A stretch of 64,000 nt of DNA, taken from positions 1,986,001-2,050,000 of the forward strand of contig JASTWF010000033.1 in assembly GCA_030390025.1 (NCBI GenBank), in the 5' to 3' direction. The notes under the pieces are model-generated. The model was not told the origin of the DNA. It saw nothing but the letters and a program-made list of their open reading frames with translations, and searched no databases. This DNA comes from Squalus acanthias (Eukaryota). The translations under genes were made by a program, and so were the position numbers. Shown here one piece after another: positions 5,418-64,000 of the stretch. Each line of letters begins with the position of its first letter. The stretch's first letter is position 1.

Positions 5418-5428
5418 GTCCCCCGTTT
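5418..5428 (-). promoter_or_regulatory. Polypurine tract of ERV-A (AAACGGGGGAC abutting the 3' LTR TG)
   Basis: Purine-rich run on the minus strand directly before the 3' LTR. It is absent next to the 5' LTR. Confidence 0.75.
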
Positions 5429-5694
5429 GATGCTTGTCTTTCCACAAAGCATCACTTGGTGAGAGAGCAAATCCAAAGTCTCCCACAAGTGAAGCTATTT
5501 CCCTGATTTTACATTTTAACCCCTGAACTGCACCCCTTACTGCGTGTCATAGTTCCTTTCTACCGAGTCAAAACATCAGCGAAACGGCTTCAGAACACAT
5601 TCAAACGGCTGGGTTCCAATTCCCACCGACAAACTTCAATTCAAAATACAGAAAATTAATAAGATCCACAGGACGTTAACAAAAGGTCACCGCG

Positions 5695-7009: not shown

Positions 7010-7120
7010 AGTGTAAAACTATAACCAGAATACAATACACTTGCTTACAGAACCTTGGTACATTACAAGTTTTTGCAGGGAGAAACCATCATCAACATAA
7101 ATCAATGACACCTTTCCGGA

Positions 7121-8394: not shown

Positions 8395-8619
8395 CTTGTT
8401 CTTAGGCGTTCCCTGAAAAGACACAGAATGCAACGTTGTCCTTGGGTGATGCCTCACCTTTCCAGACGCAGCTACACACGATTACATTTGGTATCCACAA
8501 CATACATGTAAATCCAAACTATACAGACAAGCTAAGGCAACAGACAGGAGAGAAAGAGGTTATGTACAGCGCCACCCGTCTCCGGGTGGCCACACTAGGT
8601 CTACTCGACCCTGGGCCTC

Positions 8620-13905: not shown

Positions 13906-13908
13906 TCA
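13902..13908 (-). promoter_or_regulatory. Putative gag-pol stop-codon readthrough signal UGA-CUAG
   Basis: Minus strand ..GAC CCA TGA CTA GGG GCT.. The gag stop is followed in the same frame by 21 sense codons leading into the protease ORF (13842). Confidence 0.75.
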
Positions 13909-15587: not shown

Positions 15588-15613
15588 GACTGATTTACTC
15601 TCCTTTAACCCAG

Positions 15614-15631
15614 GTCCTGCCGCGGTAGCCA
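15614..15631 (-). promoter_or_regulatory. Primer binding site complementary to tRNA-Arg(TCG)
   Basis: Minus strand TGGCTACCGCGGCAGGAC, 5 nt after the 5' LTR. The plus strand gtcctgccgcggtagcca matches the vertebrate tRNA-Arg-TCG 3' end GTCCTGCCGCGGTCG+CCA (recalled) at 17/18. Confidence 0.8.
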
Positions 15632-15636
15632 AGAGA

Positions 15637-16667
15637 TTTAAGTGGTTTTTGATCCTAGCCCAGTTGCTAGATGGACGATTCGAATCGCCCCCGCCTTACG
15701 AAAGTTCTATACCCGGGAATTATTATTCAGAGTGTAAATCAAATAAGTCATGGACAGGAATGCTTCAGCGAAAAATCAAACTTATATTTATTTGGTCTAA
15801 CATACACTGGCTAAAATGTGCACTACTAAACGAAATCACTGTCTCTGTGGAGAATAAAATCCAGGTTAAAAACAACAAACATACAGTACAAACTGGGGAC
15901 TATAAAATCCAGTATTTCCCGTGTTGCTATGGTGGACTCTAATTCCACCCCTAGCAACGAATTACCCAGTCGCATAAGGCCCTTCGCCTGTCTGAAACAA
16001 TGGAAGCCCCCACCCTCGGAATAGCCCAAAAACTTCACTTCTGAGAAAAACTCTGAGCCCTCTGGTTACCGGCTTGGGACACTCTAGACCATGCTTACCC
16101 CCACACGCAGTCCATCTCGATCGCTCCACTTAGCTGCTTCTTCCTATGGTCTTAATGTTAGATCGATCTTGGTGCAGCGAGAGCGATAGAGAGAGAGAGA
16201 ATGGTGGGAAAGTATCTATCTTTATAGGAGTCTTGCTACACCTATCTTTCCCGCCAATCTTTAAAATCCTTTTGTTTCGAAACACTCCGGTGCTGAATCA
16301 TTGATGGGTCATCCTCAAACCCATGTGTACTCCGTGATTGGAACAATGGTCCTAAGTCTGGGATATATTTCGGTCTTTCTGTTGGGCAAAACTGGCTCTT
16401 CTCCGGCTGGCTAGGCCAGTGGGTTCATTGTTCTGCTTCTCTTCTCAGATGGAGGTGAGAAGTGATTTTGAATATTCAGGATGACTGACAGTTATTGTGT
16501 CACACCCAACTGCCATGTGTTCTCTGGAGTTTTAACAAACCAGTTTTTCACATACTAAGACAGGGTGATCCCATCACAGGGAAAATACCCTCAGAAAAAT
16601 CCCATAAAGTCCACAAAATATTCTCGACTGAGTCCATTCTTCAAACAGAGACTTTGCGATCTCTTCA
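15637..16667 (-). repeat. ERV-A 5' LTR (1031 bp), TATAAA at 16221-16226 and AATAAA at 15787-15792 on minus
   Basis: Direct repeat of 4386-5417. Begins TGAAGAG; the terminal CA is mutated to AA; followed by the PBS. Confidence 0.93.
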
Positions 16668-17736
16668 GATATTATGTGAATTTGGGAGGGGCTGAGGATA
16701 TTAGGAGTGGTGGGGAGGAGCTGAGGATAATAGGTGGGGTGGGGAGGAGCTGAGGATATTAGGTGCGGTGGGGAGGAGCTGAGTATATTAGGTGGGGTGG
16801 GGAGGAGCTGAGGATATGAGGAGGTGTGGGGGAGAAGCTGAGGATATTAGGTGGGGTGGGGAGGAGCTGAGGATATTAGGTGTGGTGGGGAGGAGCTGAG
16901 GATAATAGGTGGGGTGGGGAAGAGCTGAGGATATTAGGTGGGGTGGGGAGGAGCTGAGGATATTAGGTGGGGAGGAGCTGAGAATATTAGGTGGGATGGG
17001 GAGGAGCTGAGGATATTAGGTGGGGTGGGGAGGAGCTGAGGATATTAGGTGAGGTCGGGAGGAGCTGAGGATATTAGTTGGGGTGGGGAGGAGCTGAGGA
17101 TATTAGGTGGGGTGGGGAGGAGCTGAGAATATTAGTTGGGGTGGAGAGGAGATGAGTATATTAGGTGAGGTGGTGAGGAGCTGAGGATATGAGGTGGGGT
17201 GGGGAGGAGCTGAGGATATTAGGTGTGGTGGGGAGGAGCTGAGGATATTAGGAGGGGTGAGGAGGAGCTGAGGATATTAGGTGGGGTGGGGAGTAGCTGA
17301 GGATATTAGGTGGGGTGGGGAGGAGCTGAGGATATTAGCTGGGTTGGGGAGGAGCTGAGAATATCAGGTGGGGTGGGGAGGAGCTGAGGATATTAGGTGG
17401 GGTGGGGAGGAGCTGAGGATATTAGCTGGGGTGGGGAGGAGCTGAGGATATTAGTTGGGGTGGGGTGGAGCTGAGGATATTAGTTGGGGTGGGGAGGAGC
17501 TGAGGATATTAGGTGGGGTGGGGAGGAGCTGTGGATATTGGTTGGGGTGGGGAGGAGCTGAGGATATTAGGTGGGGTGGAGAGGAGCTGAGGATATTAGG
17601 TGGGGTGGGAAGGAGCTGAGGATATTAGATGGGGTGGGGAGGTGCTAAGGATATTAGATGGGGTGTGGAGGAGCTCAGGATATTAGATGGGGTGGGGAGG
17701 AGCTGAGGATATTAGATGGGGTGTGGAGGAGCTGAG
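16668..17736. repeat. 29-bp G-rich minisatellite, block 1
   Basis: Unit gaggagctgaggatattaggtggggtggg, period 29. Confidence 0.97.
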
Positions 17737-21424: not shown

Positions 21425-22374
21425 TATTAGTTGGGGTGGGGAGGGAGCTAAGGACATTAGGAGGTTTGGTGAAGAGCTGAGTATATTTGGTGAGCTGGGG
21501 AGAAGCTGAGGATATTATGTGGGTTGGGAAGGAGCTGTGGATATCAGGTGGGGTGGGGTGGAGCTGAGTATGTAAGTTGGGGTGGGGTTGAGCTGAGGAT
21601 ATTAGGTGTGGTGGGGAGGAGCTCAGGATATTGGATGAATTCTGGAGGAGCTGTGGATTACAGGTGAGGGTCGGCAGAAATTTTTGATGTTAGGTTGGGT
21701 GGGGAGGTGCTGAGGATATTACATGGGGTGGGGAGGAGCTGAGGATATTAGGTGGGGTGGGGAGGAGCTGAGGATATTAGGTGGGGTGGGGAGGATCTGA
21801 GTATATTAGGTGGGATGGGGAGGAGCGGAGGATATTAGGTGGGGTGGGGAGGAGCTGAGGATATTAGTTGGGGTGGGGAGAAGCTGAGGATATTAGTTGG
21901 GGTGGGGAGGAGCTGAGGATATTAGGTGGGGTGGGAAGGTTCTGAGGATATTAGGTGGGGAGGAAAGGAGCTGAGAATATTAGGTGGGGTGGTGAGGAGC
22001 TGAGGATATTAGTGGGGTGGGGGGAGCTGAGGATATTAGGTGGGGTGGGGAGGAGCTGAGGATATTAAGTGGGGTGGGGAGGAGCTGAGGATATTAGGTG
22101 GGCTGGTGCGGAGCTGAGGATATTAGTTGGTGTGGGAAGAGCTGAGGATATGAGGAGGGGTGGAAAGGAGCTGAGGATATTAGGTGGGGTGGGGAGGAGC
22201 TGAGGATATTAGGTGGGTTGGGGAGTTGCTGAGGATATTAGGTGGGTTGGAGCGGAGCGGAGGATATTAGCTGGGTTGGGAAGAGATGAGGATATTAGGT
22301 GGGGTGGGGAGGAGCTGAGGATATTAGGTGGGGTGTTGAGACCTGAGGATATTAGGTGGGGTGGGGAGGAGCTG
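21425..22374. repeat. 29-bp G-rich minisatellite, block 2
   Basis: Same unit as 16668-17736. Confidence 0.97.
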
Positions 22375-25300
22375 TTGTCGGGAGCGACGAGACCGGAGGT
22401 GCTGTGAGGTGCTGTGAGTATTTGAACTCACTTTCGCGGGCTTTTCTTCACAGACTGTTGTCGGGAGCGACGAGACCGGAGGTGCTGTGAGTATTTGAAC
22501 TCACTTTCGCGGGCTTTTCTTCACAGGCTGTTGTCGGGAGCGACGAGACCGGAGGTGCTGTGAGGTGCCGTGAGTATTTGAACTCACTTTCGCGGGCTTT
22601 TCTTCACAGACTGTTGTCGGGAGCGACGAGACCGGAGGTGCTGTGAGGTGCTTGAGTATTTGAACTCACTTTCGCGGGCTTTTCTTCACAGGCTGTTGTC
22701 GGGAGCGACGAGACCGGAGGTGCTGTGAGGTGATGTGAGTATTTGAACTCACTTTCGCGGGCTTTTCTTCACAGGCTGTTGTCGGGAGCGACGAGACCGG
22801 AGGGGCTGTGAGGTGCTGTGAGAATTTGAACTCACTTTCGCGGGCTTTTCTTCACAGGCTGTTGTCGGGAGCGACGAGACCGGAGGCGCTGTGAGGTGCT
22901 GTGAGTATTTTAACTCACTTTCGCGGGCTTTTCTTCACAGGCTGTTGTCGGGAGCGACGAGACCGGAGGTGCTGTGAGGTTCTGTGAGTATTTGAACTCA
23001 CTTTCGCGGGCTTTTCTTCACAGGCTGTTGTCGGGAGCGACGAGACCGGAGGTGCTGTGAGGTGCTGTGAGTATTTGAACTCACTTTCGCGGGCTTTTCT
23101 TCACAGGCTGTTGTCGGGAGCGACGAGACCGGAGGCGCTGTGAGGTGCTGTGAGTATTTGAACTCACTTTCGCGGGCTTTTCTTCACAGACTGTTGTCGG
23201 GAGCGACGAGACCGGAGGCGCTGTGAGGTGCTGTGAGTATTTGAACTCACTTTCGCGGGCTTTTCTTCACAGGCTGTTGTCGGGAGCGACGAGACCGGAG
23301 GCGCTGTGAGGTGCTGTGAGTATTTGAACTCACTTTCGCGGGCTTTTCTTCACAGGCTGTTGTCGGGAGCGACGAGACCGGAGGCGCTGTGAGGTGCTGT
23401 GAGTATTTGAACTCACTTTCGCGGGCTTTTCTTCACAGACTGTTGTCGGGAGCGACGAGACCGGAGTAGCTGTGAGGTGCTGTGAGTATTTGAACTCACT
23501 TTTGCGGGCTTTTCTTCACAGGCTGTTGTCGGGAGCGACGAGACCGGAGGTGCTGTGAGGTGCTGTGAGTATTTGAACTCACTTTCGCGGGCTTTTCTTC
23601 ACAGGCTGTTGTCGGGAGCGACGAGACCGGAGGCGCTGTGAGGTGCTGTGAGTATTTGAACTCACTTTCGCGGGCTTTTCTTCACAGACTGTTGTCGGGA
23701 CCGACGATACCGGAGGTGCTGTGAGGTGCTGTGAGTATTTGAACTCACTTTCGCGGGCTTTTCTTCACAGGCCGTTGTCGGGAGCGACGAGACCGGAGGC
23801 GCTGTGAGGTGCTGTGAGTATTTGAACTCACTTTCTCGGGCTTTTCTTCACAGACTGTTGTCGGGAGCGACGAGACCGGAGGTGCTGTGAGGTGCTGTGA
23901 GTATTTGAACTCACTTTCGCGGGCTTTTCTTCACAGGCTGTTGAGGGGAGCGACGAGACCGGAGGTGCTGTGATGTGCTGTGAGTATTTGAACTCACTTT
24001 CGCGGGCTTTTCTTCACAGGCTGTTGTCGGGACCGACGAGACCGGAGGTGCTGTGAGGCCCTGTGAGTATTTGAACTCACTTTCGTGGGCTTTTCTTCAC
24101 AGGCTGTTGTCGGGAGCGACGAGACCGGAGGTGCTGTGAGTATTTGAACTCACATTCGCGGGCTTTTCTTCACAGGCTGTTGTCGGGAGCGACGAGACCG
24201 GAGGCGCTGTGAGGTGCTGTGAGTATTTGAACTCACTTTCGCGGGCTTTTCTTCACAGGCTGTTGTCGGGAGCGACGAGACCGGAGGTGCTGTGAGGTGC
24301 TGTGAGTATTTGAACTCACTTTCGCGGGCTTTTCTTCACAGGCTGTTGTCGGGAGTGACGAGACCGGAGGTGCTGTGAGGTGCTGTGAGTATTTGAACTC
24401 ACTTTCGCGGGCTTTTCTTCACAGGCTGTTGTCGGGAGCGACGAGACAGGAGGCGCTGTGAGGTGCTGTGAGTATTTGAACTCACTTTCGCGGGCTTTTC
24501 TTCACAGGCTGTTGTCGGGACCGACGAGACCGGAGGTGCTGTGAGGCGCTGTGAGTATTTGAACTCACTTTCGCGGGCTTTTCTTCACAGGCTGTTGTCG
24601 GGAGCGACGAGACCGGAGGCGCTGTGAGGTGCTGTGAGTATTTGAACTCACTTTCGCGGGCTTTTCTTCACAGACTGTTGTCGGGAGCGACGAGACCGGA
24701 GGTGCTGTGAGGTGCTGTGAGTATTTGAACTCAATTTCGCGGGCTTTTCTTCACAGGCTGTTGTCGGGAGCGACGAGACCGGAGGTGCTGTGAGGCGCTG
24801 TGAGTATTTGAACTCACTTTCGCGGGCTTTTCTTCACAGGCTGTTGTCGGGAGCGACGAGACCGGAGGTGCTGTGAGGTGCTGTGAGTATTTGAACTCAC
24901 TTTCGCGGGCTTTTCTTCACAGGCTGTTGTCGGGAGCGACGAGACCGGAGGCGCTGTGAGGTGCTGTGAGTATTTGAACTCACTTTCGCGGGCTTTTCTT
25001 CACAGGCTGCTGTCGGGAGCGACGAGACCGGAGGTGCTGTGAGGCGCTCTGAGTATTTGAACTCACTTTCGCGGGCTTTTCTTCACAGGCTGTTGTCGGG
25101 AGCGACGAGACCGGAGGTGCTGTGAGTATTTGAACTCACTTTCGCGGGCTTTTCTTCACAGGCTGTTGTCGGGAGCGACGAGACCGGAGGTGCTGTGAGG
25201 TGATGTGAGTATTTGAACTCACTTTCGCGGGCTTTTCTTCACAGGCTGTTGTCGGGAGCGACGAGACCGGAGGTGCTGCGAGGTGCTGTGAGAATTTGAA

Positions 25301-28300
25301 CTCACTTTCGCGGGCTTTTCTTCACAGGCTGTTGTCGGGAGCGACGAGACCGGAGGCGCTGTGAGGTGCTGTGAGTATTTTAACTCACTTTCGCGGGCTT
25401 TTCTTCACAGGCTGTTGTCGGGAGCGACGAGACCGGAGGCGCTGTGAGGTGCTGTGAGTATTTGAACTCACTTTCGCGGGCTTTTCTTCACAGGCTGTTG
25501 TCGGGAGCGACGAGACCGGAGGTGCTGTGAGGTGCTGTGAGTATTTGAACTCACTTTCGCGGGCTTTTCTTCACAGGCTGTTGTCGGGAGCGACGAGACC
25601 GGAGGCGCTGTGAGGTGCTGTGAGTATTTGAACTCACTTTCGCGGGCTTTTCTTCACAGACTGTTGTCGGGAGCGACGAGACCGGAGGAGCTGTGAGGTG
25701 CTGTGAGTATTTGAACTCACTTTCGCGGGCTTTTCTTCACAGGCTGTTGTCGGGAGCGACGAGACCGGAGGTGCTGTGAGGTGCTGTGAGTATTTGAACT
25801 CACTTTCGCGGGCTTTTCTTCACAGGCTGTTGTCGGGAGCGACGAGACCGGAGGCGCTGTGAGGTGCTGTGAGTATTTGAACTCACTTTCGCGGGCTTTT
25901 CTTCACAGGCTGTTGTCGGGAGCGACGAGACCGGAGGCGCTGTGAGGTGCTGTGAGTATTTGAACTCACTTTCGCGGGCTTTTCTTCACAGACTGTTGTC
26001 GGGAGCGACGAGACCGGAGGAGCTGTGAGGTGCTGTGAGTATTTGAACTCACTTTCGCGGGCTTTTCTTCACAGGCTGTTGTCGGGAGCGACGAGACCGG
26101 AGGTGCTGTGAGGTGCTGTGAGTATTTGAACTCACTTTCGCGGGCTTTTCTTCACAGGCTGTTGTCGGGAGCGACGAGACCGGAGGCGCTGTGAGGTGCT
26201 GTGAGTATTTGAACTCACTTTCGCGGGCTTTTCTTCACAGACTGTTGTCGGGACCGACGAGACCGGAGGTGCTGTGAGGTGCTGTGAGTATTTGAACTCA
26301 CTTTCGCGGGCTTTTCTTCACAGGCCGTTGTCGGGAGCGACGAGACCGGAGGCGCTGTGAGGTGCTGTGAGTATTTGAACTCACTTTCTCGGGCTTTTCT
26401 TCACAGACTGTTGTCGGGAGCGACGAGACCGGAGGTGCTGTGAGGTGCTGTGAGTATTTGAACTCACTTTTGCGGGCTTTTCTTCACAGACTGTTGTCGG
26501 GACTGACGAGACCGGAGGCGCTGTGAGGTGCTGTGAGTATTTGAACTCACTTTCGCGGGCTTTTCTTCACAGGCTGTTGAGGGGAGCGACGAGACCGGAG
26601 GTGCTGTGATGTGCTGTGAGTATTTGAACTCACTTTCGCGGGCTTTTCTTCACAGGCTGTTGTCGGGACCGACGAGACCGGAGGTGCTGTGAGGCCCTGT
26701 GAGTATTTGAACTCACTTTCGTGGGCTTTTCTTCACAGGCTGTTGTCGGGAGCGACGAGACCGGAGGTGCTGTGAGTATTTGAACTCACATTCGCGGGCT
26801 TTTCTTCACAGGCTGTTGTCGGGAGCGACGAGACCGGAGGCGCTGTGAGGTGCTGTGAGTATTTGAACTCACTTTCGCGGGCTTTTCTTCACAGGCTGTT
26901 GTCGGGAGCGACGAGACCGGAGGTGCTGTGAGGTGCTGTGAGTATTTGAACTCACTTTCGCGGGCTTTTCTTCACAGGCTGTTGTCGGGAGCGACGAGAC
27001 CGGAGGTGCTGTGAGGTGCTGTGAGTATTTGAACTCACTTTCGCGGGCTTTTCTTCACAGGCTGTTGTCGGGAGCGACGAGACAGGAGGCGCTGTGAGGT
27101 GCTGTGAGTATTTGAACTCACTTTCGCGGGCTTTTCTTCACAGGCTGTTGTCGGGACCGACGAGACCGGAGGTGCTGTGAGGCGCTGTGAGTATTTGAAC
27201 TCACTTTCGCGGGCTTTTCTTCACAGGCTGTTGTCGGGAGCGACGAGACCGGAGGCGCTGTGAGGTGCTGTGAGTATTTGAACTCACTTTCGCGGGCTTT
27301 TCTTCACAGACTGTTGTCGGGAGCGACGAGACCGGAGGTGCTGTGAGGTGCTGTGAGTATTTGAACTCACTTTCGCGGGCTTTTCTTCACAGGCTGTTGT
27401 CGGGAGCGACGAGACAGGAGGCGCTGTGAGGTGCTGTGAGTATTTGAAATCACTTTCGCGGGCTTTTCTTCACAGACTGTTGTCGGGACCGACGAGACCG
27501 GAGGTGCTGTGCGTATTTGAACTCACTTTCGCGGGCTTTTCTTCACAGGCTGTTGTCGGGAGCGACGAGACCGGAGGCGCTGTGAGGTGCTGTGAGTATT
27601 TGAACTCACTTTCGCGGGCTTTTCTTCACAGGCTGCTGTCGGGAGCGACGAGACCGGAGGTGCTGTGAGGCGCTCTGAGTATTTGAACTCACTTTCGCGG
27701 GCTTTTCTTCACAGGCTGTTGTCGGGAGCGACGAGACCGGAGGTGCTGTGAGTATTTGAACTCACATTCGCGGGCTTTTCTTCACAGGCTGTTGTCGGGA
27801 GCGACGAGACCGGAGGCGCTGTGAGGTGCTGTGAGTATTTGAACTCACTTTCGCGGGCTTTTCTTCACAGACTGTTGTCGGGACCGACGAGACCGGAGGC
27901 GCTGTGAGGTGCTGTGAGTATTTGAACTCACTTTCGCGGGCTTTTCTTCACAGACTGTTGTCGGGAGCGACGAGACCGAAGGTGCTGTGAGGTGCTGTGA
28001 GTATTTGAACTCACTTTCGCGGGCTTTTCTTCACAGGCTGTTGTCGGGAGCGACGAGACCGGAGGCGCTGTGAGGTGCTGTGAGTATTTGAAATCACTTT
28101 CGCGGGCTTTTCTTCACAGACTGTTGTCGGGACCGACGAGACCGGAGGTGCTGTGAGGTGCTGTGAGTATTTGAACTCACTTTCGCGGGCTTTTCTTCAC
28201 AGGCTGTTGTCGGGAGCGACGAGACCGGAGGCGCTGTGAGGTGCTGTGAGTATTTGAACTCACTTTCGCGGGCTTTTCTTCACAGACTGTTGTCGGGACC

Positions 28301-31300
28301 GACGAGACCGGAGGCGCTGTGAGGTGCTGTGAGTATTTGAACTCACTTTCGCGGGCTTTTCTTCACAGACTGTTGTCGGGACCGACGATACCGGAGGTGC
28401 TGTGAGGTGCTGTGAGTATTTGAACTCACTTTCGCGGGCTTTTCTTCACAGGCCGTTGTCGGGAGCGACGAGACCGGAGGCGCTGTGCGGTGCTGTGAGT
28501 ATTTGAACTCACTTTCGCGGGCTTTTCTTCACAGACTGTTGTCGGGAGCGACGAGACCGGAGGTGCTGTGAGGTGCTGTGAGTATTTGAACTCACTTTCG
28601 CGGGCATTTCTTCACAGGCTGTTGAGGGGAGCGACGAGACCGGAGGTGCTGTGATGTGCTGTGAGTATTTGAACTCACTTTCGCGGGCATTTCTTCACAG
28701 GCTGTTGAGGGGAGCGACGAGACCGGAGGTGCTGTGATGTGCTGTGAGTATTTGAACTCACTTTCGCGGGCATTTCTTCACAGGCTGTTGAGGGGAGCGA
28801 CGAGACCGGAGGTGCTGTGATGTGCTGTGAGTATTTGAACTCACTTTCGCGGGCTTTTCTTCACAGGCTGTTGTCGGGACCGACGAGACCGGAGGTGCTG
28901 TGAGGCCCTGTGAGTATTTGAACTCACTTTCGTGGGCTTTTCTTCACAGGCTGTTGTCGGGAGCGACGAGACCGGAGGTGCTGTGAGTATTTGAACTCAC
29001 ATTCGCGGGCTTTTCTTCACAGGCTGTTGTCGGGAGCGACGAGACCGGAGGCGCTCTGAGGTGCTGTGAGTATTTGAACTCACTTTCGCGGGCTTTTCTT
29101 CACAGACTGTTGTCGGGAGCGACGAGACCGGAGGCGCTGTGAGGTGCTGTGAGTATTTGAACTCACTTTCGCGGGCTTTTCTTCACAGACTGTTGTCGGG
29201 AGCGACGAGACCGGAGGCGCTGTGAGGTGCTGTGAGTATTTGAACTCACTTTCGCGGGCTTTTCTTCACAGGCTGTTGTCGGGAGCGACGAGACCGAAGG
29301 TGCTGTGAGGTGCTGTGAGTATTTGAACTCACTTTCGCGGGCTTTTCTTCACAGGCTGTTGTCGGGAGCGACGAGACCGGAGGCGCTGTGAGGTGCTGTG
29401 AGTATTTGAACTCACTTTCGCGGGCTTTTCTTCACAGGCTGTTGTCGGGAGCGACGAGACCGGAGGCGCTGTGAGGTGCTGTGAGTATTTGAACTCACTT
29501 TCGCGGGCTTTTCTTCACAGGCTGTTGTCGGGAGCGACGAGACCGGAGGCGCTGTGAGGTGCTGTGAGTATTTGAACTCACTTTCGCGGGCTTTTCTTCA
29601 CAGACTGTTGTCGGGAGCGACGAGACCGGAGGTGCTGTGAGGTGCTGTGAGTATTTGAACTCACTTTCGCGGGCTTTTCTTCACAGACTGTTGTCGGGAG
29701 CGACGAGACCGGAGGCGCTGTGAGGTGCTGTGAGTATTTGAACTCACTTTCGCGGGCTTTTCTTCACAGACTGTTGTCGGGAGCGACGAGACCGAAGGTG
29801 CTGTGAGGTGCTGTGAGTATTTGAACTCACTTTCGCGGGCTTTTCTTCACAGACTGTTGTCGGGAGCGACGAGACCGGAGGTGCTGTGAGGTGCTGTGAG
29901 TATTTGAACTCACTTTCGCGGGCTTTTCTTCACATACTGTTGTCGGGAGCGACGAGACCGGAGGCGCTGTGAGGTGCTGTGAGTATTTGAAATCACTTTC
30001 GCGGGCTTTTCTTCACAGACTGTTGTCGGGACCGATGAGACCGGAGGTGCTGTGAGGTGCTGTGAGTATTTGAACTCACTTTCGCGGGCTTTTCTTCACA
30101 GGCTGTTGTCGGGAGCGACGAGACCGGAGGCGCTGTGAGGTGCTGTGAGTATTTGAACTCACTTTCGCGGGCTTTTCTTCACAGACTGTTGTCGGGAGCG
30201 ACGAGACCGGAGGTGCTGTGAGTATTTGAACTCACATTCGCGGGCTTTTCTTCACAGGCTGTTGTCGGGAGCGACGAGACCGGAGGCGCTGTGAGGTGCT
30301 GTGAGTATTTGAACTCACTTTCGCGGGCTTTTCTTCACAGGCTGTTGTCGGGAGCGACGAGACCGGAGGCGCTGTGAGGTGCTGTGAGTATTTGAACTCA
30401 CTTTCGCGGGCTTTTCTTCACAGACTGTTGTCGGGAGCGACGAGACCGAAGGTGCTGTGAGGTGCTGTGAGTATTTGAACTCACTTTCGCGGGCTTTTCT
30501 TCACAGACTGTTGTCGGGAGCGACGAGACCGAGGTGCTGTGAGGTGCTGTGAGTATTTGAACTCACTTTCGCGGGCTTTTCTTCACAGGCTGTTGTCGGG
30601 AGCGACGAGACCGGAGGCGCTGTGAGGTGCTGTGAGTATTTGAACTCACTTTCGCGGGCTTTTCTTCACAGACTGTTGTCGGGAGCGACGAGACCGGAGG
30701 TGCTGTGAGGTGCTGTGAGTATTTGAACTCACTTTCGCGGGCTTTTCTTCACAGGCTGTTGTCGGGAGCGACGAGACCGGAGGTGCTGTGAGGTGCTGTG
30801 AGTATTTGAACTCACTTTCGCGGGCTTTTCTTCACAGGCTGTTGTCGGGAGCGACGAGACCGGAGGCGCTGTGAGGTGCTGTGTGTATTTGAACTCACTT
30901 TCGCGGGCTTTTCTTCAGAGACTGTTGTCGGGAGCGACGAGACCGGAGGAGCTGTGAGGTGCTGTGAGTATTTGAACTCACTTTCGCGGGCTTTTCTTCA
31001 CAGACTGTTGTCGGGAGCGACGAGACCGGAGGTGCTGTGAGGTGCTGTGAGTATTTGAACTCACTTTCGCGGGCTTTTCTTCACAGGCTGTAGTCGGGAG
31101 CGACGAGACCGGAGGTGCTGTGAGTATTTGAACTCACTTTCGCGGGCTTTTCTTCACAGGCTGTTGTCGGGAGCGACGAGACCGGAGGCGCTGTGAGGTG
31201 CTGTGAGTATTTGAACTCACTTTCGCGGGCTTTTCTTCACAGACTGTTGTCGGGAGCGACGAGACCGGAGGCGCTGTGAGGTGCTGTGAGTATTTGAACT

Positions 31301-32944
31301 CACTTTCGCGGGCTTTTCTTCACAGGCTGTTGTCGGGAGCGACGAGACCGGAGGTGCTGTGAGGTGCTGTGAGTATTTGAACTCACTTTCGCGGGCTTTT
31401 CTTCACAGACTGTTGTCGGGAGCGACGAGACCGAGGTGCTGTGAGGTGCTGTGAGTATTTGAACTCACTTTCGCGGGCTTTTCTTCACAGGCTGTTGTCG
31501 GGAGCGACGAGACCGGAGGCGCTGTGAGGTGCTGTGAGTATTTGAACTCACTTTCGCGGGCTTTTCTTCACAGGCTGTTGTCGGGAGCGACGAGACCGGA
31601 GGTGCTGTGAGGTGCTGTGAGTATTTGAACTCACTTTCGCGGGCTTTTCTTCACAGACTGTTGTCGGGAGCGACGAGACCGGAGGTGCTGTGAGGTGCTG
31701 TGAGTATTTGAACTCACTTTCGCGGGCTTTTCTTCACAGGCTGTTGTCGGGAGCGACGAGACCGGAGGCGCTGTGAGGTGCTGTGAGTATTTGAACTCAC
31801 TTTCGCGGGCTTTTCTTCACAGACTGTTGTCGGGACCGACGAGACCGGAGGTGCTGTGAGGTGCTGTGTGTATTTGAACTCACATTCGCGGGCTTTTCTT
31901 CACAGGCTGTTGTCGGGACCGACGAGACCGGAGGTGCTGTGAGGTGCTGTGAGTATTTGAACTCACTTTCGCGGGCTTTTCTTCACAGACTGTTGTCGGG
32001 AGCGACGAGACCGGAGGTGCTGTGAGTATTTGAACTCACATTCGCGGGCTTTTCTTCACAGAATGTTGTCGGGAGCGACGAGACCGGAGGTGCTGTGAGG
32101 TGCTGTGTGTATTTGAACTCACTTTCGCGAGCTTTTCTTCACAGACTGTTGTCGGGACCGACGAGACCGGAGGCGCTGTGAGGTGCTGTGAGTATTTGAA
32201 CTCACTTTCGCGGGCTTTTCTTCACAGACTGTTGTCGGGACCGACGAGACCGGCGGTGCTGTGAGGTGCTGTGAGTATTTGAACTCACTTTCGCGGGCTT
32301 TTCTTCACAGGCTGTTGTCGGGAATTTCTTCACAGAATGTTGTCGGGAGCGACGAGACCGGAGGTGCTGTGAGGTGCTGTGAGTATTTGAACTCACTTTC
32401 GCGGGCTTTTCTTCACAGACTGTTGTCGGGACCGACGAGACCGGAGGTGCTGTGAGGTGCTGTGAGTATTTGAACTCACTTTCGCGGGCTTTTCTTCACA
32501 GGCTGTTGTCGGGAGCGACGAGACCGGAGGTGCTGTGAGGTGCTGTGAGTATTTGAACTCACTTTCGCGGGCTTTTCTTCACAGACTGTTGTCGGGACCG
32601 ACGAGACCGGAGGAGCTGTGAGGTGCTGTGAGTATTTGAACTCACTTTCGCGGGCTTTTCTTCACAGACTGTTGTCGGGAGCGACGAGACCGGAGGTGCT
32701 GTGAGGTGCTGTGAGTATTTGAACTCACTTTCGCGGGCTTTTCTTCACAGACTGTTGTCGGGACCGACGAGACCGGAGGCGCTGTGAGGTGCTGTGAGTA
32801 TTTGAACTCACTTTCGCGGGTTTTTCTTCACAGACTGTTGTCGGGACCGACGAGACCGGAGGTGCTGTGAGGTGCTGTGAGTATTTGAACTCACTTTCGC
32901 GGTCTTTTCTTCACAGACTGTTGTCGGGAGCGACGAGACCGGAA
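22372..32944 (+). repeat. 83-bp CpG-rich tandem array (~10.6 kb, roughly 125-130 units, some 73-bp variants)
   Basis: Unit ctgttgtcgggagcgacgagaccggaggtgctgtgaggtgctgtgagtatttgaactcactttcgcgggcttttcttcacagg. Period 83 (22528 to 22611). Very homogeneous. Confidence 0.98.
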
Positions 32945-32988
32945 GCGGACCAGGTGGGAAGCACCCAGGTGAACGGCATTTAAGGAGG

Positions 32989-35900
32989 GTGGAAATAGAG
33001 GTTAATAATTATGATCTAATTGGGATTACGGAAACATGGTTGCAGGGTGAGCAGGGCTGGGAGCTTAACATACAGGGGTATTCAGTATTTAGGAAGGATC
33101 GACAAAAAAGAAAGGGAGGAGGGGTAGCATTGCTGGTAAAAGAGGGGATAAATGCAATTGAAAGGAAGGATATTAACTCAGTTAATACAGAATCTATATG
33201 GGTGGAGCTAAGAAATAGCGAGGGGCGAAAAACATTAATAGGAGTGGTATATAGGCCTCCAAATAGTAAAATAGAGGTTGGGGAGGGCATCACGAGGGAA
33301 ATTAGAGAAGCGTGCAAGAAGAGCACAGCTGTCATCATAGGTGACTTTAACTTACATATAGATTGGATTAGCCTAATCAGTAAAAATAATGAGGAGGAGG
33401 AATTCCTTGAGTGTTTAAGGGATGGTTATCTGGATCAATATGTCGAGGAACCAACTCGGGAACAGGCTATATTGGACTGGGTACTGTGCAATGAGAAGGG
33501 ACTAATTAGTAATCTTGTTGTACGGGGACCCTTGGGTCAGAGCGATCATAACATGATCGATTTCTCACTCGAAATGGAGAGCGAAGAAATTGACTCAGAG
33601 ACTAAGGTCCTGAATTTAAACAAGGGGAATTATAGAAACATAGAAACATAGAAAATAGGTACAGGAGTAGACCATTCGGTCCTTCGAGCCTGCACCGCCA
33701 TTCAATGCGTTCATGGCTGAACATGCTACCTCAGTACCCCATTCCTGCTTTCTCGCCATCCCCCTTGATCCCCCTAGTTGTGAGTGTTATATCTAACTCC
33801 CTTTTGAATATATTTAGCGAACTGGCCTCAACAACCTTCTGTGGAAGAGAATTCCATAGATTCACCACTCTCTGGGTGAAGAAGTTCCTCCTCAGCTCAG
33901 TCTTAAATGGCTTCCCCTTAATCCTTAGACTGTGACCCCTGGTTGTAGTTTTCCCTAACATTGGGAACATTCTGCCCGCATCTAATTTGTCTAAACCAGT
34001 CAGGATTTTAAATGTCTCTATAAGATCCCCCCTCATTCTTCTGAACTCCAGAGGATACAAGTTCAGTTGACCCAATCTTTCTTGATATGTCAGTCCGGCC
34101 ATCCCAGGAATCAATCTAGTGAACCTTCGCTGCACTCCCTCAATAGCAAGAATGTCCTTCCTTAAGTTAGGAGACCAAAACTGCGCACAATACTCCAGGT
34201 GTGGCCTCACCAAGGCCCTGTACAACTGCAGCATCACCTCCCTACTCCTGTACTCAAATCCCCTTGCTATGAAGGCCATCATTCCGTTTGCTTTCTTGAC
34301 TGCCTGCTGCACTTGCATTTCCACCTTCAGTGACTGATGTACCATGACGCCCAGGTCACGTTGCACCTCCCCTTTCCCTAATCTGCGACCATTCAGGTAA
34401 TAGTCCGCCTCTCTATTTTTACCACCAAAGTGGATAACCTCACATTTATCCACATTGTACTTCATCTGCCATACATTTGCCCATTCACCCAACCTGTCCA
34501 AGTCACTCTGTAGCCTCCTAGCATCCTCCTCATTGTTCACACTGCCTCCCAATTTAGTGTCATTATGATGCCATTAGACGGGAACTGAGTAGGTCTGATT
34601 GGACAACGTTCCTGGGAGGACTGGAGGTAGATAAACAATGGCAAGCATTTAAAGATAGAATGACAAAATTGCAAAAATTGTTTATACCAATCTGGCATAA
34701 AAGGAAATCTAAAAAGGTGACTCAACCGTGGATAACAGGGGAAATTAGAGACAGCATAAAATCCAAAGATAGGGCGTATAAAATAGCCAAAAAAAGCGCC
34801 AGAGCGGAAGATTGGGAACAGTTTAAGATAGAGCAAAGGAGGACAAAGGGCTTAATCAAGAGGGGCAAAATAGCTTACGAAAGCAAGCTGGCGGAAAATA
34901 TAAAAACTAACTCCAAAAGCTTTTATAAGTATATCAAGAGGAAAAGACTGGTGAAAACCAAAGTTGGTCCATTGCAGTCAGATACGGGGGAATATATAAC
35001 GGGAAATGAGGAAATGGCAGACCAACTAAATGCATACTTTGGGTCAGTCTTTACGAAGGAAGACACAAAAAACCTCCCTGGGATATCGGGAAAAATAGGG
35101 ACATTGGCAAAGGAGGAACTGACGCAAATCAATATCTCTAAGGATATGGTGTTAAGGAAGCTAAAGGGATTGAAGGCGGACAAATCCCCAGGGCCTGATA
35201 ACATGCATCCTAGGGTACTGAAGGAGGTGGCCCTAGAGATAGCGGATGCACTAAGTATGATTTTTCAGAATTCATTAGACTCGGGAACAGTGCCCATGGA
35301 TTGGAGGGTAGCTAACGTTACCCCACTATTCAAAAAGGGGGGTAGGGAAAAAGCAGGTAATTACAGACCTGTAAGCCTTACATCAGTTGTGGGCAAAATG
35401 CTGGAGTCCATCATTAAGGATGAAATAGCGGAGCACTTAGCAAATGGGGACAGGATAGGACAGAGTCAACATGGATTTACAAAGGGTAAATCGTGCTTGA
35501 CTAATCTATTGGAATTTTTTGAGGGAGTAACTGGTAAAATAGATGGGGGAGAGCCAGTAGATGTGGTGTACCTGGACTTCCAAAAGGCCTTCGACAAGGT
35601 CCCACATAAAAGATTAGCATGGAAAATTGAAGCTCATGGGATAAAGGGGAACGTATTGACGTGGATAGAGAACTGGCTGTCAGATAGAAAACAGAGAGTT
35701 GGAATAAACGGCTCATTTTCTGAATGGCAGGCAGTAACAAGTAGGGTACCGCAGGGATCTGTCCTGGGTCCCCAGCTGTTCACAATTTACATTAATGACC
35801 TGGATCAGGGAGTCGGATGCAGCATTTCCAAATTTGCAGACGACACTAAACTAGGAGGCGGGGTGGGCTCAGAGGAGGAGACCAGGAAGCTCCAGAGCGA

Positions 35901-48332: not shown

Positions 48333-48532
48333 NNNNNNNNNNNNNNNNNNNNNNNNNNNNNNNNNNNNNNNNNNNNNNNNNNNNNNNNNNNNNNNNNNNN
48401 NNNNNNNNNNNNNNNNNNNNNNNNNNNNNNNNNNNNNNNNNNNNNNNNNNNNNNNNNNNNNNNNNNNNNNNNNNNNNNNNNNNNNNNNNNNNNNNNNNNN
48501 NNNNNNNNNNNNNNNNNNNNNNNNNNNNNNNN
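48333..48532. other. Assembly gap (200 N)
   Basis: Run of N of round length, typical of a scaffolding gap of unknown size. Confidence 0.99.
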
Positions 48533-58280: not shown

Positions 58281-60066
58281 TGTTAGGTTCAGGAGATGGT
58301 TCTGTGATAGTAGATTTGTAAGGGGGCGCGTCTCAGACGCTGCTGGTGCGAGGTTAGGCCTTCGTTGCCTAATACTATTGCTTGCTCTGGTCTCCGGCCA
58401 GCCTTTTTGCAATAAGCACCTGTGAGTGGTTCGACCCACTCGCCCTTATGGTTCTAACACTGGACTTAGGTGCAAGGAGCAGTAATGCAGAGAAAACTCA
58501 AATAGACCCTGTTGAATAGTACGAAATGGAAATCATTATTGCATGGCGTCTTAAATCATGAAGTGCATGTCATAGGCGCAAATCAACGAGAGTACAAGTA
58601 TACATACATTCATAAAGCTTGGTCTATGGAAATGAAGAACACACGGCACATCGTAAAAAGGGGAACATATTATACCTTAACCTTATTAAAAACCACCCTC
58701 CCTTAACAATACCGACACTACGCCTAGATTTGTAGGATCGGAAAACATGCTCACCACTCGTGTTACTTCGGAGATTTTTAAAGTGAGGCACTCAGCTCGT
58801 TTCGCTTCAGCGCCTGACTGTCACGTGTTTGGAAGGGTCTCTGCACCCCACTTGTTTACTTTCGCTGCTGCGAAAAGCAGGCCAGACTCTCTGTTGTCAT
58901 GAAGAACTAGGCAGAACTCGGAACGTTTATAAAATTCAAAGAAGAGGCTTCCTGTGCTCGAAACAGGTTGCAGTCGGTAGAACTCAAAGAAGAGTTCTTT
59001 ATTTATATTTTCAGGCACGGTCGGGGTTTACTGACCGTGGCAGCACGTGGATTCTTCTCGTCTTCTTCTCGTCTCGTCTCTTCGGGCCTCCGGGTCCAGA
59101 CACCGTTTACTGACACTCGGGATGGTGTACCCTGTTACTTGCCCTTGTCGGGGCGGCTCGTGCCGATTGAGCTCCACCCAACATTCGAATAACCAACCAG
59201 TACGGCTAAGAGTCAAGAGTCAACAAAGCCCAGAGAAACAAAAAGTCCAGCCCTAAGGAAGAGCTTCAGCAAGGGTCCGCCGAGAGATAAGAGCCAGCCG
59301 GGACAATAAGAGTTCAGCAGTCAGCAGCGAGATAAGAGACCGATGGACATTTGTTCTCTATAGTTATAGTGATGTGTCCACTTATCTCCCGCTCAAATCT
59401 TAATGTTTGTCCTTTGTGTAATATTGGCGTACAAAACTCCCAGCATGGGGCGATTCTTTTCTTTAACGGGTTTCGGTAGCACCTGAAACTGGCCAACTAT
59501 CAGTTAATGTCTTCCCCATTGTTGAATCAGCCAGGATGTGTATGAATCGTCTCCCTGACTGGTTTTGGCACCTCCCCGAATATTGACTTAATCACCCGTC
59601 AATGTCTCTCTCATTGTAGTGCTGTGGGGGTATTTGTGTATTGATGTGTCTGGATGGGCCATCAATTGCCCAGTACAATGGTCCTTACTGTGCATAGGAA
59701 AACGATTCCATCACTTATATCTTTGCTATTGTTCCAAATGCAAACGGGTTGCATCCTGTCTTTATCAGTGTTTACCGAGTATGATCCAATCTTATTCTGA
59801 ATGTTTATTCGACGCCATCTTTTCTGCCCACTGTATTTCTGGAAGCTTCTGCCACGATGCGCGGCGGCCATTTTACAGGCTTCTGTGTCCTTTATTATCA
59901 GGACAGCATTTCGTGTAATAAAACTGATCAAACGAATCTGCTTCTCTCTTGTTATTTTGAATCGCGATAATTGCTAAACTTTACAGTCCATCCTGTTGAT
60001 GCGAATAACTCCACTTATCGTATCAATTAAAAATGGTGGTGAGCAAAATTATCCCGATTCTCCACA
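58281..60066 (-). repeat. Probable ERV-B 3' LTR (internal boundary uncertain)
   Basis: Non-coding block ending in CA at 58281, with TATAA (59364-59368) and AATAAA (58998-59003) on minus and a candidate TG start at 60066. No second copy in the window and no clean PPT. Confidence 0.45.
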
Positions 60067-60379
60067 TCCAAACACTCCCGGTACTTAAACTATCTATGGC
60101 CTCCATGCAGTTCTCATTTCCCAGAGAAATTACATTGTCTAAACTTGGACAAATTGTAGGCAGCATTGCCTTTAAACTTACACTGCGTATACGCCTTCCA
60201 GGTGCAAAAGACCGATGCCTCTCGCACTACCTGTATATGCATGTTTTATTATAAAAGGAAAAATAATCAAACCAACTGTTTTAAAAATACAAAAGTTCCA
60301 AACTTAGTTACACATACTCATAACTAACAACAACTACAAAAACACACATGGTAAAATGGAACGGCGTCATTCTGGCCGT

Positions 60380-62340
60380 TTACGCGGTACTTTCCTCGTT
60401 CACGCGCACGTAACGTTCTCTCCACTCCTCTGTGTTCTCCTGCCTCGTGAGGCGTTTGCCTCTTTTGCAGTGTACGACCAATAGGTACACTACAATCACA
60501 ACTTGACACACTACCAAAATGTGGGAGGCTATCTTTATCCATGACGGCACTTCAATATTAGTGAACAGATCACAGCACGGTGGGATTACTATGTCCAGTA
60601 TCTCTGTCCCTATCTCTACAGTCTTTTGTTCCAGGGTGTAAAAATGTTTCTGTGATACAATGACGGCTTTTAAAATCTTGGTGAGGTGTTCAGGGAGAGG
60701 GGGAATGGTGTATCCGAAATGCGCAATGAATCGCTGCAAGTCTGTGAAATTCTCTTCTACAGTGAGGTGAACAGTAGATGGTTCAGGGATTGGGACAATT
60801 CGCTGTTGTGTCACTTGAACTTCAGCCCTGGGTTTAAAACAGAAACTACTGTCACTCACCGGACTCCGGATGTGGTGTCCATGCTGGTAGTGTTGCGCTG
60901 CAGTGGTTACGCAATACGTTCCATCCCTATGTATGCCACCTGTGGGGGCACATGATCTTGTGTCATTGCTTCCATGGTGCAATTCATGGGCTTCGCGCCA
61001 GCCGTTCTGAACCCGCATTGTGGTGTTAAAAAGGCATTCAAGTGCTGGGGACACAGGATGATGTGTGCTCCCCGGCCACGACAACCCGAAAGGTCGGTAC
61101 CTGTCATCGTTTGCTCCCAGCGGATTACGTAAGGTGGGACCGCTGCGTAGCGAATGTGGGCTCCCCCCTGAATGCCACCAATGTTCTCCACCCGATACAC
61201 CGGGGCGGGCTTTGCTGTGTCGCCCAACACCGGCATCCGTACTACTATCCCCATGATAGTATGATTTGACTGTCCGCAGTACACGGGGACTGGGTATGCC
61301 TCTGAGGCTAGCCTGAGCTGGCACGGGCTTAATGCGTTCTGAAAAGGAGTGGAGCGCCTGCAGGTGTTTGTTACTTATCCAGGACGGGACCAAACCTTGT
61401 TTTAAATCCTCCAAATTACTGTGGCCCTCGCCCAGTAACCACACCCCGTATAGTACGCACACCTCGTTCTGCGCAGCTTGATCGGATGCATTCCGATCTT
61501 CCCTGATCAGGGCATTTAACGTTCTCGCATGCTTCTCCAGCTCTGCTATAATCTCTTTTATGTGTAGTGTCATGGCCTGGTCCTCATGTAACTCAGACCC
61601 TACTACCTTGTTCTCGTTTGTGAGGATGCTTTTTAACTGTGTTTTTAAACCGTTGATCTGGGTCTGCAGCTCCACATTGTCTAGAGCGTTGACCACAGAT
61701 GTTCCCGTATTAAAAGGAGTGAACACATCGTTCACAACATCCCTGCTTTGTCTCCCCACCTGACCCAAAACTTCGTGTGGTGTGGTGTTAGGAAAAATAT
61801 GGATATACCCTTGGGGCAAACGTACTTCGATCCCCACATACAAACATATATTCCCTCATCCGGTTCCCACCATTTGTCCCAACAGACTTTCAATTGTCCG
61901 TTAGTCCCTGTAATTGTCCGATGGGTATTGTTACCCAATCGCTCCCACTCGACCGAGGAATTTCTCATAGCCTTGCTTAACTTCCGTAACCACCACCATC
62001 GGCTCAATGGGACCTTCCCATTGCTCGTCAAACAAATCCTTTTGCCGACGGTAACACTGATTCTGGGTGCAATGATCCTCACCCTGGGACACAGTAAATA
62101 AGTCTCTTTGTAGGCAAATCCGGATGCGCTGGAGTATTCCGTCGAATTCGTTCCCAGCCATCCCGGCCACCTTCCCTTGTGGAAATAAGTGGCGGTTTCC
62201 TCAGCCTTTCGCTCCCCGGTCCCATCCATCGTGATGGGGCCCGTGTCCCCGGAGCAACCGAACACAACGACATCCTTGGTGAGGCCCCGATAGGCCAATC
62301 CATATCCGATCGTTGCGAGCACTATCAGAATCCTTTCCAT
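60380..62340 (-). pseudogene. env: ERV-B env (signal peptide, Ig-like domain, RQSR furin site, fusion peptide/HR1, Cys-rich core, HR2, TM), frameshifted
   Basis: MERILIVLATIGYGLA after a splice acceptor (tctgatcacag, 62353); RISVTVGKRICL..WWW..DEGIYVC; RQSR|DVVNDVFTPFNTGTSVVNALD; LQTQINGLKTQLKSIL; TM IASHILVVCQVVIVVYLLVV. Confidence 0.88.
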
Positions 62341-62892
62341 CTTTCCTGGTTCCTGTGATCAGATAAAATGATGTAGCCAGCCTCCCAAGAGTCTCTGGCT
62401 TTTGTGAAGCGTGAGCGGGTCCCTTGACCTCGTCTCACGTACAAAGACACGTATGCTGGATAGACCTTAACTATTCCTATCACTAACTCCCATCATTTTA
62501 CCATTTACTTTTAAAATTAAACTACAATCTTACCAAACTTAAAACATTATAAACTTAAACTTATCCTAAACGTAACTGTACAGCGCCGCCCGTTCCCAGG
62601 GCGGCCTACCTAAATTCTGTGAAGGCTGCCACGAGCTTTTCCCAGTGGCGGGGGGGCACTGACCCCTTCCATTGATCTGCCGCAGCCTGTCGTCACTGCG
62701 CTGGGACTGGGATCTCCCTGGAGTGCCTTGAACTTACGCCTGGGGGTGTACGAGGGATTTGACCACAACTTCCTGGGCTGGGGTGTCCGACTCGACCTAC
62801 GGAGGGCTACCTTGGGCAAGATTCCCAGGACCGACGGACCGGGAACCGAGACTTCCACCGTCACGGCCTGTGGTCCCACCACAGCCGCCGGC

Positions 62893-63530
62893 TCTGTCTC
62901 CCCTGGCCCCGCCCCCTGGGCTCGGGACCTGCAGTTTCTGACTCCACCCTACTTGTCTCTCCAGTATGTTGAACTCCACTCACAGTCCCTGTCTCCCCTG
63001 GCCCCGCCCCCTGGGCTCCGCCCCCCTGGCCCCGCCCCCCTGGCCCCGCCCCCTGGGCTCGGGAGCTGCAGTTTCTGACTCCACCCTACTTGTCTGTCCA
63101 GTATGTGGATCTCCACTCACAATCCCTATCTCCCCTGGCCCCGCCCCCCTGGCCCCGCCCCCTGGCCCCGCCCCCTGGGCTCGGGACCTGCAGTTTCTGA
63201 CTCCACCCTACTTGTCTCTCCAGTATGTTGAACTCCACTCGCAGTCCCTATCTCCCCTGGCTCCGCCCCCTGGCCCCGCCCCCCTGGGCTCGGGAGCTGC
63301 GGTTTCTGACTCCACCCTACTTGTCTCTCCAGTATGTGTAACTCCACTCACAATCCCTGTCTCCCCTGGCCCCGCCCCCTGGCTCCGCCCCCCCTGGCCC
63401 CGCCCCCTGGCCCCGCCCCCTGGCTCCGCCCCCTGGCCCCGCCCCCTGGGCTCGGGACCTGTGGTTTCCGACTCCACCCTACTTGTCTCTCCAGTATGTT
63501 GAACTCCACTCACAGTCCCTATCTCCCCTG
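62893..63530. repeat. Compound tandem repeat in the ERV-B integrase tail (~5 units, each with variable GGGGCGGGGC subrepeats)
   Basis: Core gggctcgggacctgcagtttctgactccaccctacttgtctctccagtatgttgaactccactcacagtccct repeated, separated by 1-5 tggccccgccccc units. Confidence 0.92.
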
Positions 63531-64000
63531 AGCTTGGGTCGAGGGCGGAACCTCCGTCCTCTGTCCCCACCACCTCTCCGACCGGGTCACTACCTTGGTC
63601 GAGCTCTCCGAGCTCTTCCTCATCTGAATCCCAACACCAAGAAAAGATCCTACACTTTTCCAGAATGTCCTCTCCCCTCAAGCAGGCTGCTTTACCGGCC
63701 TGTGTGCCCTGCGGTTCTACCTGGGGCTGAGAGTCCCCACTCGCAGGTTTGGCCCCTGTGATTGGCCCCTGTGCACCCGGCTTGTACAGCTTGCACTGGT
63801 TAATGTGGAACCATTTCGTGCGCCGGGGTACCTTCACGGCATACACCATGGGACTCGCCTTATCTACAATACTGTGGGGTCCCATATACAGTGGTTCCAA
63901 ACTCCCTACTCTGGCATAGTTCCTAACCATGACCTGATCTCCGACTTCCCACTCCTGCTTCTTACGGGGTTCCAGCAACAGTCGATTGCCCTGATGCTGT
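63208..64000 (-). pseudogene. pol: ERV-B integrase C-terminus (GPY/F-like) with repetitive extension
   Basis: WEVGDQVMVRNYARVGSLEPLYMGPHSIV..KWFHINQCKLY. Confidence 0.9.

Follow-up and report, generated by a model that had tools for sequence, protein, structure and literature searches.

The window analysed here is a stretch of 64,000 nucleotides from Squalus acanthias (assembly GCA_030390025.1, contig JASTWF010000033.1, positions 1,986,001 to 2,050,000), and its minus strand carries the broken env gene of a fossil shark-type retrovirus, hereafter provirus B. The reading that we favour, with good confidence, is that the product of this gene in unbroken relatives is predicted to be a class I fusogen with the fold of the fusion (F) proteins and of foamy Env, that the virus likely belonged to a deep retroviral branch other than the lokiretroviruses, and that its Env was likely inherited and not derived from a paramyxovirus.

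The env gene of provirus B runs on the minus strand from a start codon at 62340 to a stop at 60380. The initial annotation covered 60380–61760; all ten motifs that it quoted were located within that span on the minus strand, but the gene begins outside it. The N-terminal piece (61792–62340) contains the start codon and a hydrophobic signal-like stretch, followed by an Ig-like module, and is 73% identical to residues 3–175 of P0002, a relative from a ray. The module itself (approximately 62070–61825, residues 80–183) was assigned by an Atlas feature search, in which Ig families scored 0.90–0.92 and which serves as a lead only; Pfam returned zero matches on this N-terminal piece, and a weak V-set match occurs in one pair of relatives. 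Downstream, a break at 61770–61800 combines a frame change with the loss, near 61790, of approximately 130 codons relative to P0002 (residues 176–313), and the part lost corresponds to an F2-like strand and a helix in the relatives.

After the break, the cleavage-site position is occupied by the reported RQSR (61742–61753), which is present but departs from R-X-K/R-R; a canonical site is found in nine of the ten relatives caught by the pattern, out of 43 proteins. The small-residue peptide described behind this motif lies at 61679–61741 and is a putative fusion peptide, with a mean hydropathy of 0.3 and a predicted continuity with the first helix, its position in provirus B being set by the cleavage site of the relatives. 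The long HR1/HRA-like heptad helices (61430–61678) are 64% identical to the sawshark protein P0001, whose model has helices at residues 35–75 and 84–146, and the heptad stretches themselves fall at 61669–61622 and 61561–61505. The first part of the Cys-rich beta region (60925–61347; 68% identity to P0001) is enclosed by the two frame shifts, is read in another frame, and contains the motifs DLSGC (61095), ILCP (61059), PQCG (61023), and MNCT (60987). The second part, together with a linker (60700–60922; 62% identity to P0001 residues 305–418), returns to the first frame and contains YCVTT (60916) and FCFKP (60844). The HR2/HRB-like helix (60596–60697) was mapped by tblastn from helix 380–413 of the P0001 model, and the transmembrane segment (60476–60532; mean hydropathy 2.6) is followed by a short basic tail reaching the stop.

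Thus the heptad region, the second helix, and the transmembrane segment are where the initial annotation had seen them. The Cys-rich beta region, put at roughly 250 residues, retains all its motifs, but the stretch between the helices measures approximately 235 residues, approximately 170 of them predicted as beta, and approximately 400 codons separate the cleavage site from the transmembrane segment. By hydropathy and the model of a relative, a signal-like start, two heptad helices, and a single C-terminal transmembrane segment are present. Because the three in-frame pieces match one unbroken sawshark protein at 62–68% identity, and keep eight of the nine cysteine columns that a 35-row alignment shows to be conserved there, the resemblance goes beyond chance.

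As assembled, the env copy of provirus B is dead, with two frame shifts, approximately 130 missing codons, and a non-canonical cleavage motif. The initial annotation had recognized the copy as broken and had counted two frame shifts, near 61290 and 60915; the second falls at approximately 60922, the first at approximately 61350, and the damage is greater than it had seen. The two shifts cancel each other, and therefore a frame of 491 codons (61855–60380) remains open; it has no signal peptide, and its middle does not stay in register with any relative. No fusogen would come from this copy, since the strand and helix preceding the cleavage site are missing and the head is out of register. Elsewhere in the sequence data, contigs matching 59000–62600 at at least 85% number 4138, 4989, 1644, and 386 in four public runs, and, relative to the B copy, contigs from other copies are of a different length at the first break in all four runs and at the second in three of four. 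This points to a very abundant family, in which the breaks of the B copy are not general.

A profile search yielded 39 Env relatives; those with a named source come from sharks, rays, and frogs. Two alignments of 35 rows were built from these matches. Identity within the Env family across sharks and frogs is 18–30%. Long stop-free Env frames (P0021, P0042/P0032, P0010, and P0026) occur in two distant frogs and the bamboo shark, the frames of the two frogs being 53% identical over 484 residues; such frames may be young insertions or co-opted genes. The public gene models P0007, P0008, P0014, and P0002 either join env pieces of the family to sequence of Niban-like, cadherin-like, or pol type or omit the head, and are probably annotation artefacts.

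The fold was modelled with AlphaFold2 on two relatives, the unbroken sawshark P0001 and the full-length bamboo shark P0010, rather than on the B copy. The P0001 model (pLDDT 65.6, pTM 0.35) has helices over residues 35–146, strands over residues 179–346, and a further helix at residues 380–413. Searched with Foldseek against the PDB, all 33 listed rows are pneumo- or paramyxovirus F or foamy Env, the best among the listed matches being hMPV F (E 5.5e-6) and, for foamy Env, 8rm1 (E 1.7e-5), with low TM-scores by query (0.13–0.31). A wide VIA search with the same model gave coiled coils only (residues 80–149, best Z 6.8), barely covering the beta part. P0010 shares 27% identity with P0001 across 402 residues, and its model has a pLDDT of 59.8, falling below 50 in the first 179 residues. 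Its 41 listed Foldseek rows are all F, led by hPIV3 F (E 1.4e-9), and in a second look with VIA 50 of 50 rows are F, with Z from 10.2 to 11.2 over model residues 189–600; against hMPV F (7tl0_A), 279 residues are aligned at Z 11.2 and an rmsd of 5.6. The VIA alignment of P0010 to F begins at model residue 189, within the part that is missing from provirus B. The suggestion of a fusogen of the Mononegavirales F type finds its counterpart in these models, which match F of hMPV, RSV, hPIV3, measles virus, and henipaviruses as well as foamy Env; the structure search proposed as a check puts F and foamy Env first, and gamma- or betaretroviral TM is absent among the listed matches. These models accordingly predict that the Env of the unbroken relatives is a class I fusogen with the F/foamy-Env fold.

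By sequence, the link to F is fainter. The Pfam family Fusion_gly (PF00523) matches the middle piece of the window at E 0.043 and 12.6 bits, under the gathering cut-off of 29.8, and gave no match in 32 relatives; Atlas features of P0001 fall in Fusion_gly and Baculo_F clusters at 0.92. No fusion protein came up when the PDB was searched by sequence with P0001, with an Env alignment, and with two frames of the window. CX6CC, CX7CC, and ISD-like motifs are absent from all four window pieces and all seven relatives searched, and the gamma-type arrangement of ISD plus CX6CC in a short TM ectodomain is not what is found here.

Within the window, provirus B is represented by an integrase tail, env, and a probable LTR. 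The C-terminal tail of the integrase (63769–64000, minus strand; Pfam SH3_Tf2-1 E 0.001, MLVIN_C E 0.03) precedes env, and the other pol parts lie beyond the window. Among 377 sequences compared, this tail is 76% identical to that of provirus A, a sister element in the same window, and 37–46% identical to the next best. A probable 3' LTR (58730–60075, minus strand) is suggested by a purine run followed by TG at approximately 60075 and by a step in contig depth at 60089–60330; its ends are deduced from these signs, the partner LTR lying outside the window. A nested G+C-rich tandem repeat with units of approximately 110–140 bases lies between integrase and env at 62900–63530. The surrounding sequence is vertebrate DNA rich in CR1-type LINE pieces and satellites, including an 83-base satellite at approximately 22300–33600 (approximately 138 units, 96–99% alike); an assembly gap of 200 N occupies 48333–48532, and no tRNA genes were found within the 64-kb window.

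Provirus A (4385–16668, minus strand) is bounded by LTRs at 16668–15636 and 5418–4385, which are 89.8% alike (K2P 0.10). It contains gag with a CCHC zinc knuckle, a separate protease behind the gag stop, RT, tether, RNase H, a NYNRIN-like integrase, and a broken env that is devoid of HR1 and the Cys-rich head. The order LTR-gag-pro-RT-tether-RNase H-IN-env-LTR, together with an RT inside the retroviral clade, places it in Retroviridae in the wide sense. Provirus A serves as a proxy for provirus B because the integrase tails are 76% identical and the env pieces 40–58% identical; the lineage of provirus B, whose RT lies beyond the window, is thus read through 75 integrase residues and the env similarity. 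Several further features accompany provirus A. A CR1-type LINE piece (10013–11390) splits it between RNase H and integrase, and a 56-base tandem repeat lies in its 3' region (5673–6326 and 6828–7009). Coiled-coil-rich frames with no Pfam match occur at the start of gag, before the capsid part (14675–15695, minus strand), and recall the smc-like frame of some lokiretroviruses. Behind the 5' LTR, a TGG-initiated candidate primer-binding site (15631–15614, minus strand) may resemble an arginine tRNA end and matches the best L001 site in 12 of 18 bases. Both proviruses carry an Ig-like module in the N-terminal part of Env, at 62070–61825 in provirus B and at 8100–7850 in provirus A (both minus strand).

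The RT of provirus A is 77% identical to the Pol relative P0044, which has no match in viral_contigs, and approximately 50% identical to frog and coelacanth Pol. In a tree of 38 rows (270 columns, LG+G4 with no mixture model), it joins shark-type, frog, and coelacanth Pol (94/91), and this group stands inside the canonical-retrovirus clade (100/99), from which the group with the lokiretroviral motif is excluded. The tree is built without references for class II, ERV-L, or fish foamy-like elements, represents the lokiretroviruses by database proteins with the published RT motif rather than by the published consensus sequences, and omits rows of larger sets, among them the long-branch loci L014 and L015; trees of 69 rows (without foamy viruses) and 57 rows give the same placement. 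A union of provirus A with class I is rejected by the AU test (p 0.007). Of 15 loci, L001 is the nearest to provirus A in RT, protease, RNase H, and the first integrase piece. L001 measures 10,688 bases and has a short frame overlapping the end of env and a long Env tail, as described for the snakehead retrovirus (SnRV), whose genome length and layout are given in the available sections of PMC12193657. A union of provirus A with L001 is not rejected by the AU test (p 0.24), and the two never form one clade in the 69-, 57-, and 38-row trees. On these sequence comparisons, the virus likely came from a deep branch, at the base of the canonical retroviruses, with members in sharks, rays, frogs, and coelacanth (an SnRV-like grade in the loose sense of PMC4977317), and not from the lokiretroviruses.

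The Env comparisons extend to the same reference viruses. With hhalign, the Env profile matches the L001 Env at a probability of 89% (E 2e-6) over 286 columns, with the cleavage site and cysteines in register, and with the other alignment at 83% (E 1e-5), which makes the Env homologous to that of the SnRV clade; two control Envs reach 0.8% and 1.5%. By HMMER alone the L001 Env is weak (E 0.004–0.13). Foamy Env is matched by the Env profile at 60% (E 9e-5), and in an HMMER search of 170 frames, eight of 13 foamy Env frames have E below 0.01, while gamma-type Envs are at 0.3 or worse. The Env of the genome of SnRV length and layout (L001:6131-9532) appears to be F-type. Its residues approximately 38–95 look Ig-like by eye and share a Y-x-C-M-W motif with the Env of the proviruses here; pairwise comparisons with its N-terminus give E 0.025–0.09, that with the N-terminal piece of provirus B by BLAST giving E 0.025.

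The match to foamy Env raises the alternative that the element is a member of the shark/frog foamy-like clade (CmiFLERV, XtrFLERV) and that its env is the one missing from that clade, with the same mechanism of fusion. This clade is known from pol only, as far as the available part of PMC5512871 goes, and unites shark and Xenopus elements in the manner of the Pol and Env relatives found here; a union of provirus A with the foamy viruses is not rejected by the AU test (p 0.23), and foamy Envs are the best HMMER matches among the reference viruses. Nevertheless, the RT of provirus A is 31–32% identical to mammalian foamy RT against 40% to L001, and no tree recovers a foamy grouping. The Pfam family Foamy_virus_ENV (PF03408) matches neither the window pieces nor the relatives, with 1682 bits in the positive control L028. 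Mammalian foamy viruses are not known to have either a separate protease behind the gag stop or a CCHC knuckle in gag, and provirus A has both. Foamy-like membership is therefore considered unlikely.

That the element is a lokiretrovirus, which would be the first from a cartilaginous fish, was the reading initially favoured and is now regarded as distinctly improbable. According to the available sections of Wang and Han (PMC7947760), the lokiretroviral Env resembles PF00523, and its motif order, likened by eye, is the same as here; provirus A has a tether, an RNase H, and a NYNRIN-like integrase, the integrase of lokiretroviruses being sister to CGIN1/NYNRIN, and the RT of provirus B itself lies outside the window. 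The reading was dropped on the RT motif, the tree placement, and the AU test. In the portion of the supplement compared, CPFG occurs 19 times in the lokiretroviral RTs and LPQG never, whereas provirus A has LPQG; the tree places provirus A elsewhere, and its union with the lokiretroviruses is rejected at p 0.006. Moreover, the available sections report lokiretroviruses in none of six chondrichthyan genomes surveyed, yet Env relatives were found here from three of those species. The three full-length lokiretroviral Envs compared are also without the long N-terminal part.

Less credible still is a recent capture of env from a paramyxo- or pneumovirus, even though the best PDB matches are F of these viruses and the weak PF00523 match points the same way. 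F entries are numerous in the PDB, identity to F is 7–16%, and the family is already 18–30% diverse in sharks and frogs. In BFVD, the F-type model is matched by a fish filovirus glycoprotein (top, E 7e-12), baculovirus F, insect-virus glycoproteins, paramyxovirus F, and foamy Env, and also by the Env of walleye epsilonretroviruses (E 3e-8 and 2e-5), the filovirus, baculovirus, insect-virus, and walleye proteins scoring on a par with F or almost so; the identifiers of the walleye Envs and the fish filovirus glycoprotein are Q9WHI8, A4GTG3, and A0A2P1GML9. That the matches spread this broadly at such low identity speaks against a special tie to paramyxo- or pneumoviruses. The initial annotation spoke of the fossil of a retrovirus with an RNA-virus-type fusogen, and the retroviral integrase tail in front of env agrees with it; the term should not mean that the gene was taken from an RNA virus, because the same fold is present in foamy, lokiretroviral, and errantiviral Env and in baculovirus F. 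The Env was likely inherited from early retroviruses instead of being taken from a paramyxovirus.

Finally, a Ty3/gypsy errantivirus-like element, or a working host gene in the 491-codon frame, can practically be set aside: Ty3/gypsy elements widely carry an env of the F type (PMC13524379, available part), Ty3 is the top PDB sequence match of P0044, level with MLV-type RT, and the frame is open, but the dual RNase H of provirus A (a tether plus an RNase H, against the single RNase H and metaviral RT of Metaviridae) and its tree position inside the retroviruses largely refute the former, and against the latter the frame has neither a signal peptide nor a middle in register, and other copies differ at both breaks.

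For the fusogen of F type favoured here, a mode of action can be outlined by analogy with F and with foamy Env (PMC11468914, available part). A precursor with a signal peptide would assemble into a trimer, in which the beta domains would use strands from both sides of the furin-type site. Cleavage at this multibasic site would free the weakly hydrophobic helical peptide. Upon triggering, HR1 would spring into a long coiled coil and the peptide would enter the cell membrane; HR2 would then pack back to form a six-helix bundle, and the viral and cell membranes would fuse. Attachment is probably provided by the Ig-like N-terminal module. Since the putative attachment module and the fusogen share one chain, receptor binding is our guess for the trigger, low pH being the alternative.

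The four scenarios for the origin of retroviral Env are left open in the available sections of Wang and Han (PMC7947760). An F-type ancestor is favoured by another deep branch whose Env is of the F type and is tied in sequence to the Envs of L001 and the foamy viruses, and in fold to that of walleye epsilonretroviruses. We tentatively propose, in the knowledge that this is slightly more apt to be wrong than right, that the F-type fusogen is ancestral in retroviruses, that the lokiretroviruses, the shark-frog-coelacanth branch, SnRV, the foamy viruses, and the walleye epsilonretroviruses keep it with their own attachment modules (in the family of provirus B an Ig-like one within the same chain), and that the gamma/beta-type Env of orthoretroviruses is a later replacement. 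The earliest retroviruses may, on this hint, have entered cells by an F-type Env, and the question of origin becomes testable by comparing the phylogeny of Env with that of RT. Surveys for gamma-, beta-, or foamy-type env alone would overlook this very abundant family of ERVs in cartilaginous fish; one such Env survey (bioRxiv 2021.11.23.469661) screens, in its available part, for gamma- and beta-type Env only.

An F-type fusogen in retroviruses is in itself already known, from lokiretroviruses, foamy viruses, and the Ty3/gypsy relatives. In the literature searched, with most subscription journals outside its scope, no F-type Env is described for SnRV, shark SnRV-like ERVs, or the shark-frog branch; this scope takes in the available parts of PMC12440569, PMC10699275, PMC12583693, PMC11521997, PMC13709493, PMC10435555, bioRxiv 2020.12.18.423569, and bioRxiv 2024.03.17.585361. 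The passages available on SnRV (PMC12193657, PMC4977317) likewise contain nothing on an F-type fold, and they report SnRV-like ERVs from elephant shark, coelacanth, and amphibians.

Compared with the paramyxo- and pneumovirus F proteins (PF00523; hMPV, RSV, hPIV3, measles, and Nipah), the shark-type Env has the same predicted fold and order of elements at the low identity given above. F relies on a separate attachment protein. In errantiviruses, whose Env has the same fold as baculovirus F (PF12259; PMC13524379, available part), the F-type Env is carried by an invertebrate Ty3/gypsy Pol, whereas the Pol here is retroviral and in a vertebrate. Foamy Env has the F fold (PDB 8rm0 and 8rm1; PMC11468914, available part) and shares with the family of provirus B a weakly hydrophobic helical fusion peptide, a profile match over the Cys-rich region, and the third rank among the listed structural matches. 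However, the same source describes in foamy Env a membrane-bound leader and an insertion, immediately ahead of the cleavage site, that forms the receptor-binding domain; in contrast, the extra module of the B family is N-terminal, with no large insert before that site.

In the case of the lokiretroviruses, the Env resembles that of the B family in having a signal peptide, a cleavage site of RXKR type (canonical in most relatives matched, though not in provirus B itself), a fusion peptide, a coiled coil, a Cys-rich region, a transmembrane segment, and a weak likeness to PF00523, and the Pol resembles that of provirus A in its tether and RNase H, so that a PF00523-like Env and a dual RNase H are common to both. 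In contrast, with provirus A as proxy, the RT falls outside the lokiretroviral clade, which is sister to all other retroviruses, and the Env of the B family has approximately 230 extra N-terminal residues with the Ig-like module, whereas lokiretroviral Envs start directly at the F2-like strand. SnRV, as represented by L001, is the nearest reference virus in RT, protease, and RNase H, and its Env aligns with that of the family of provirus B over the 286 columns; it differs in an Env that is much longer, with 1133 residues from stop to stop and a long tail.
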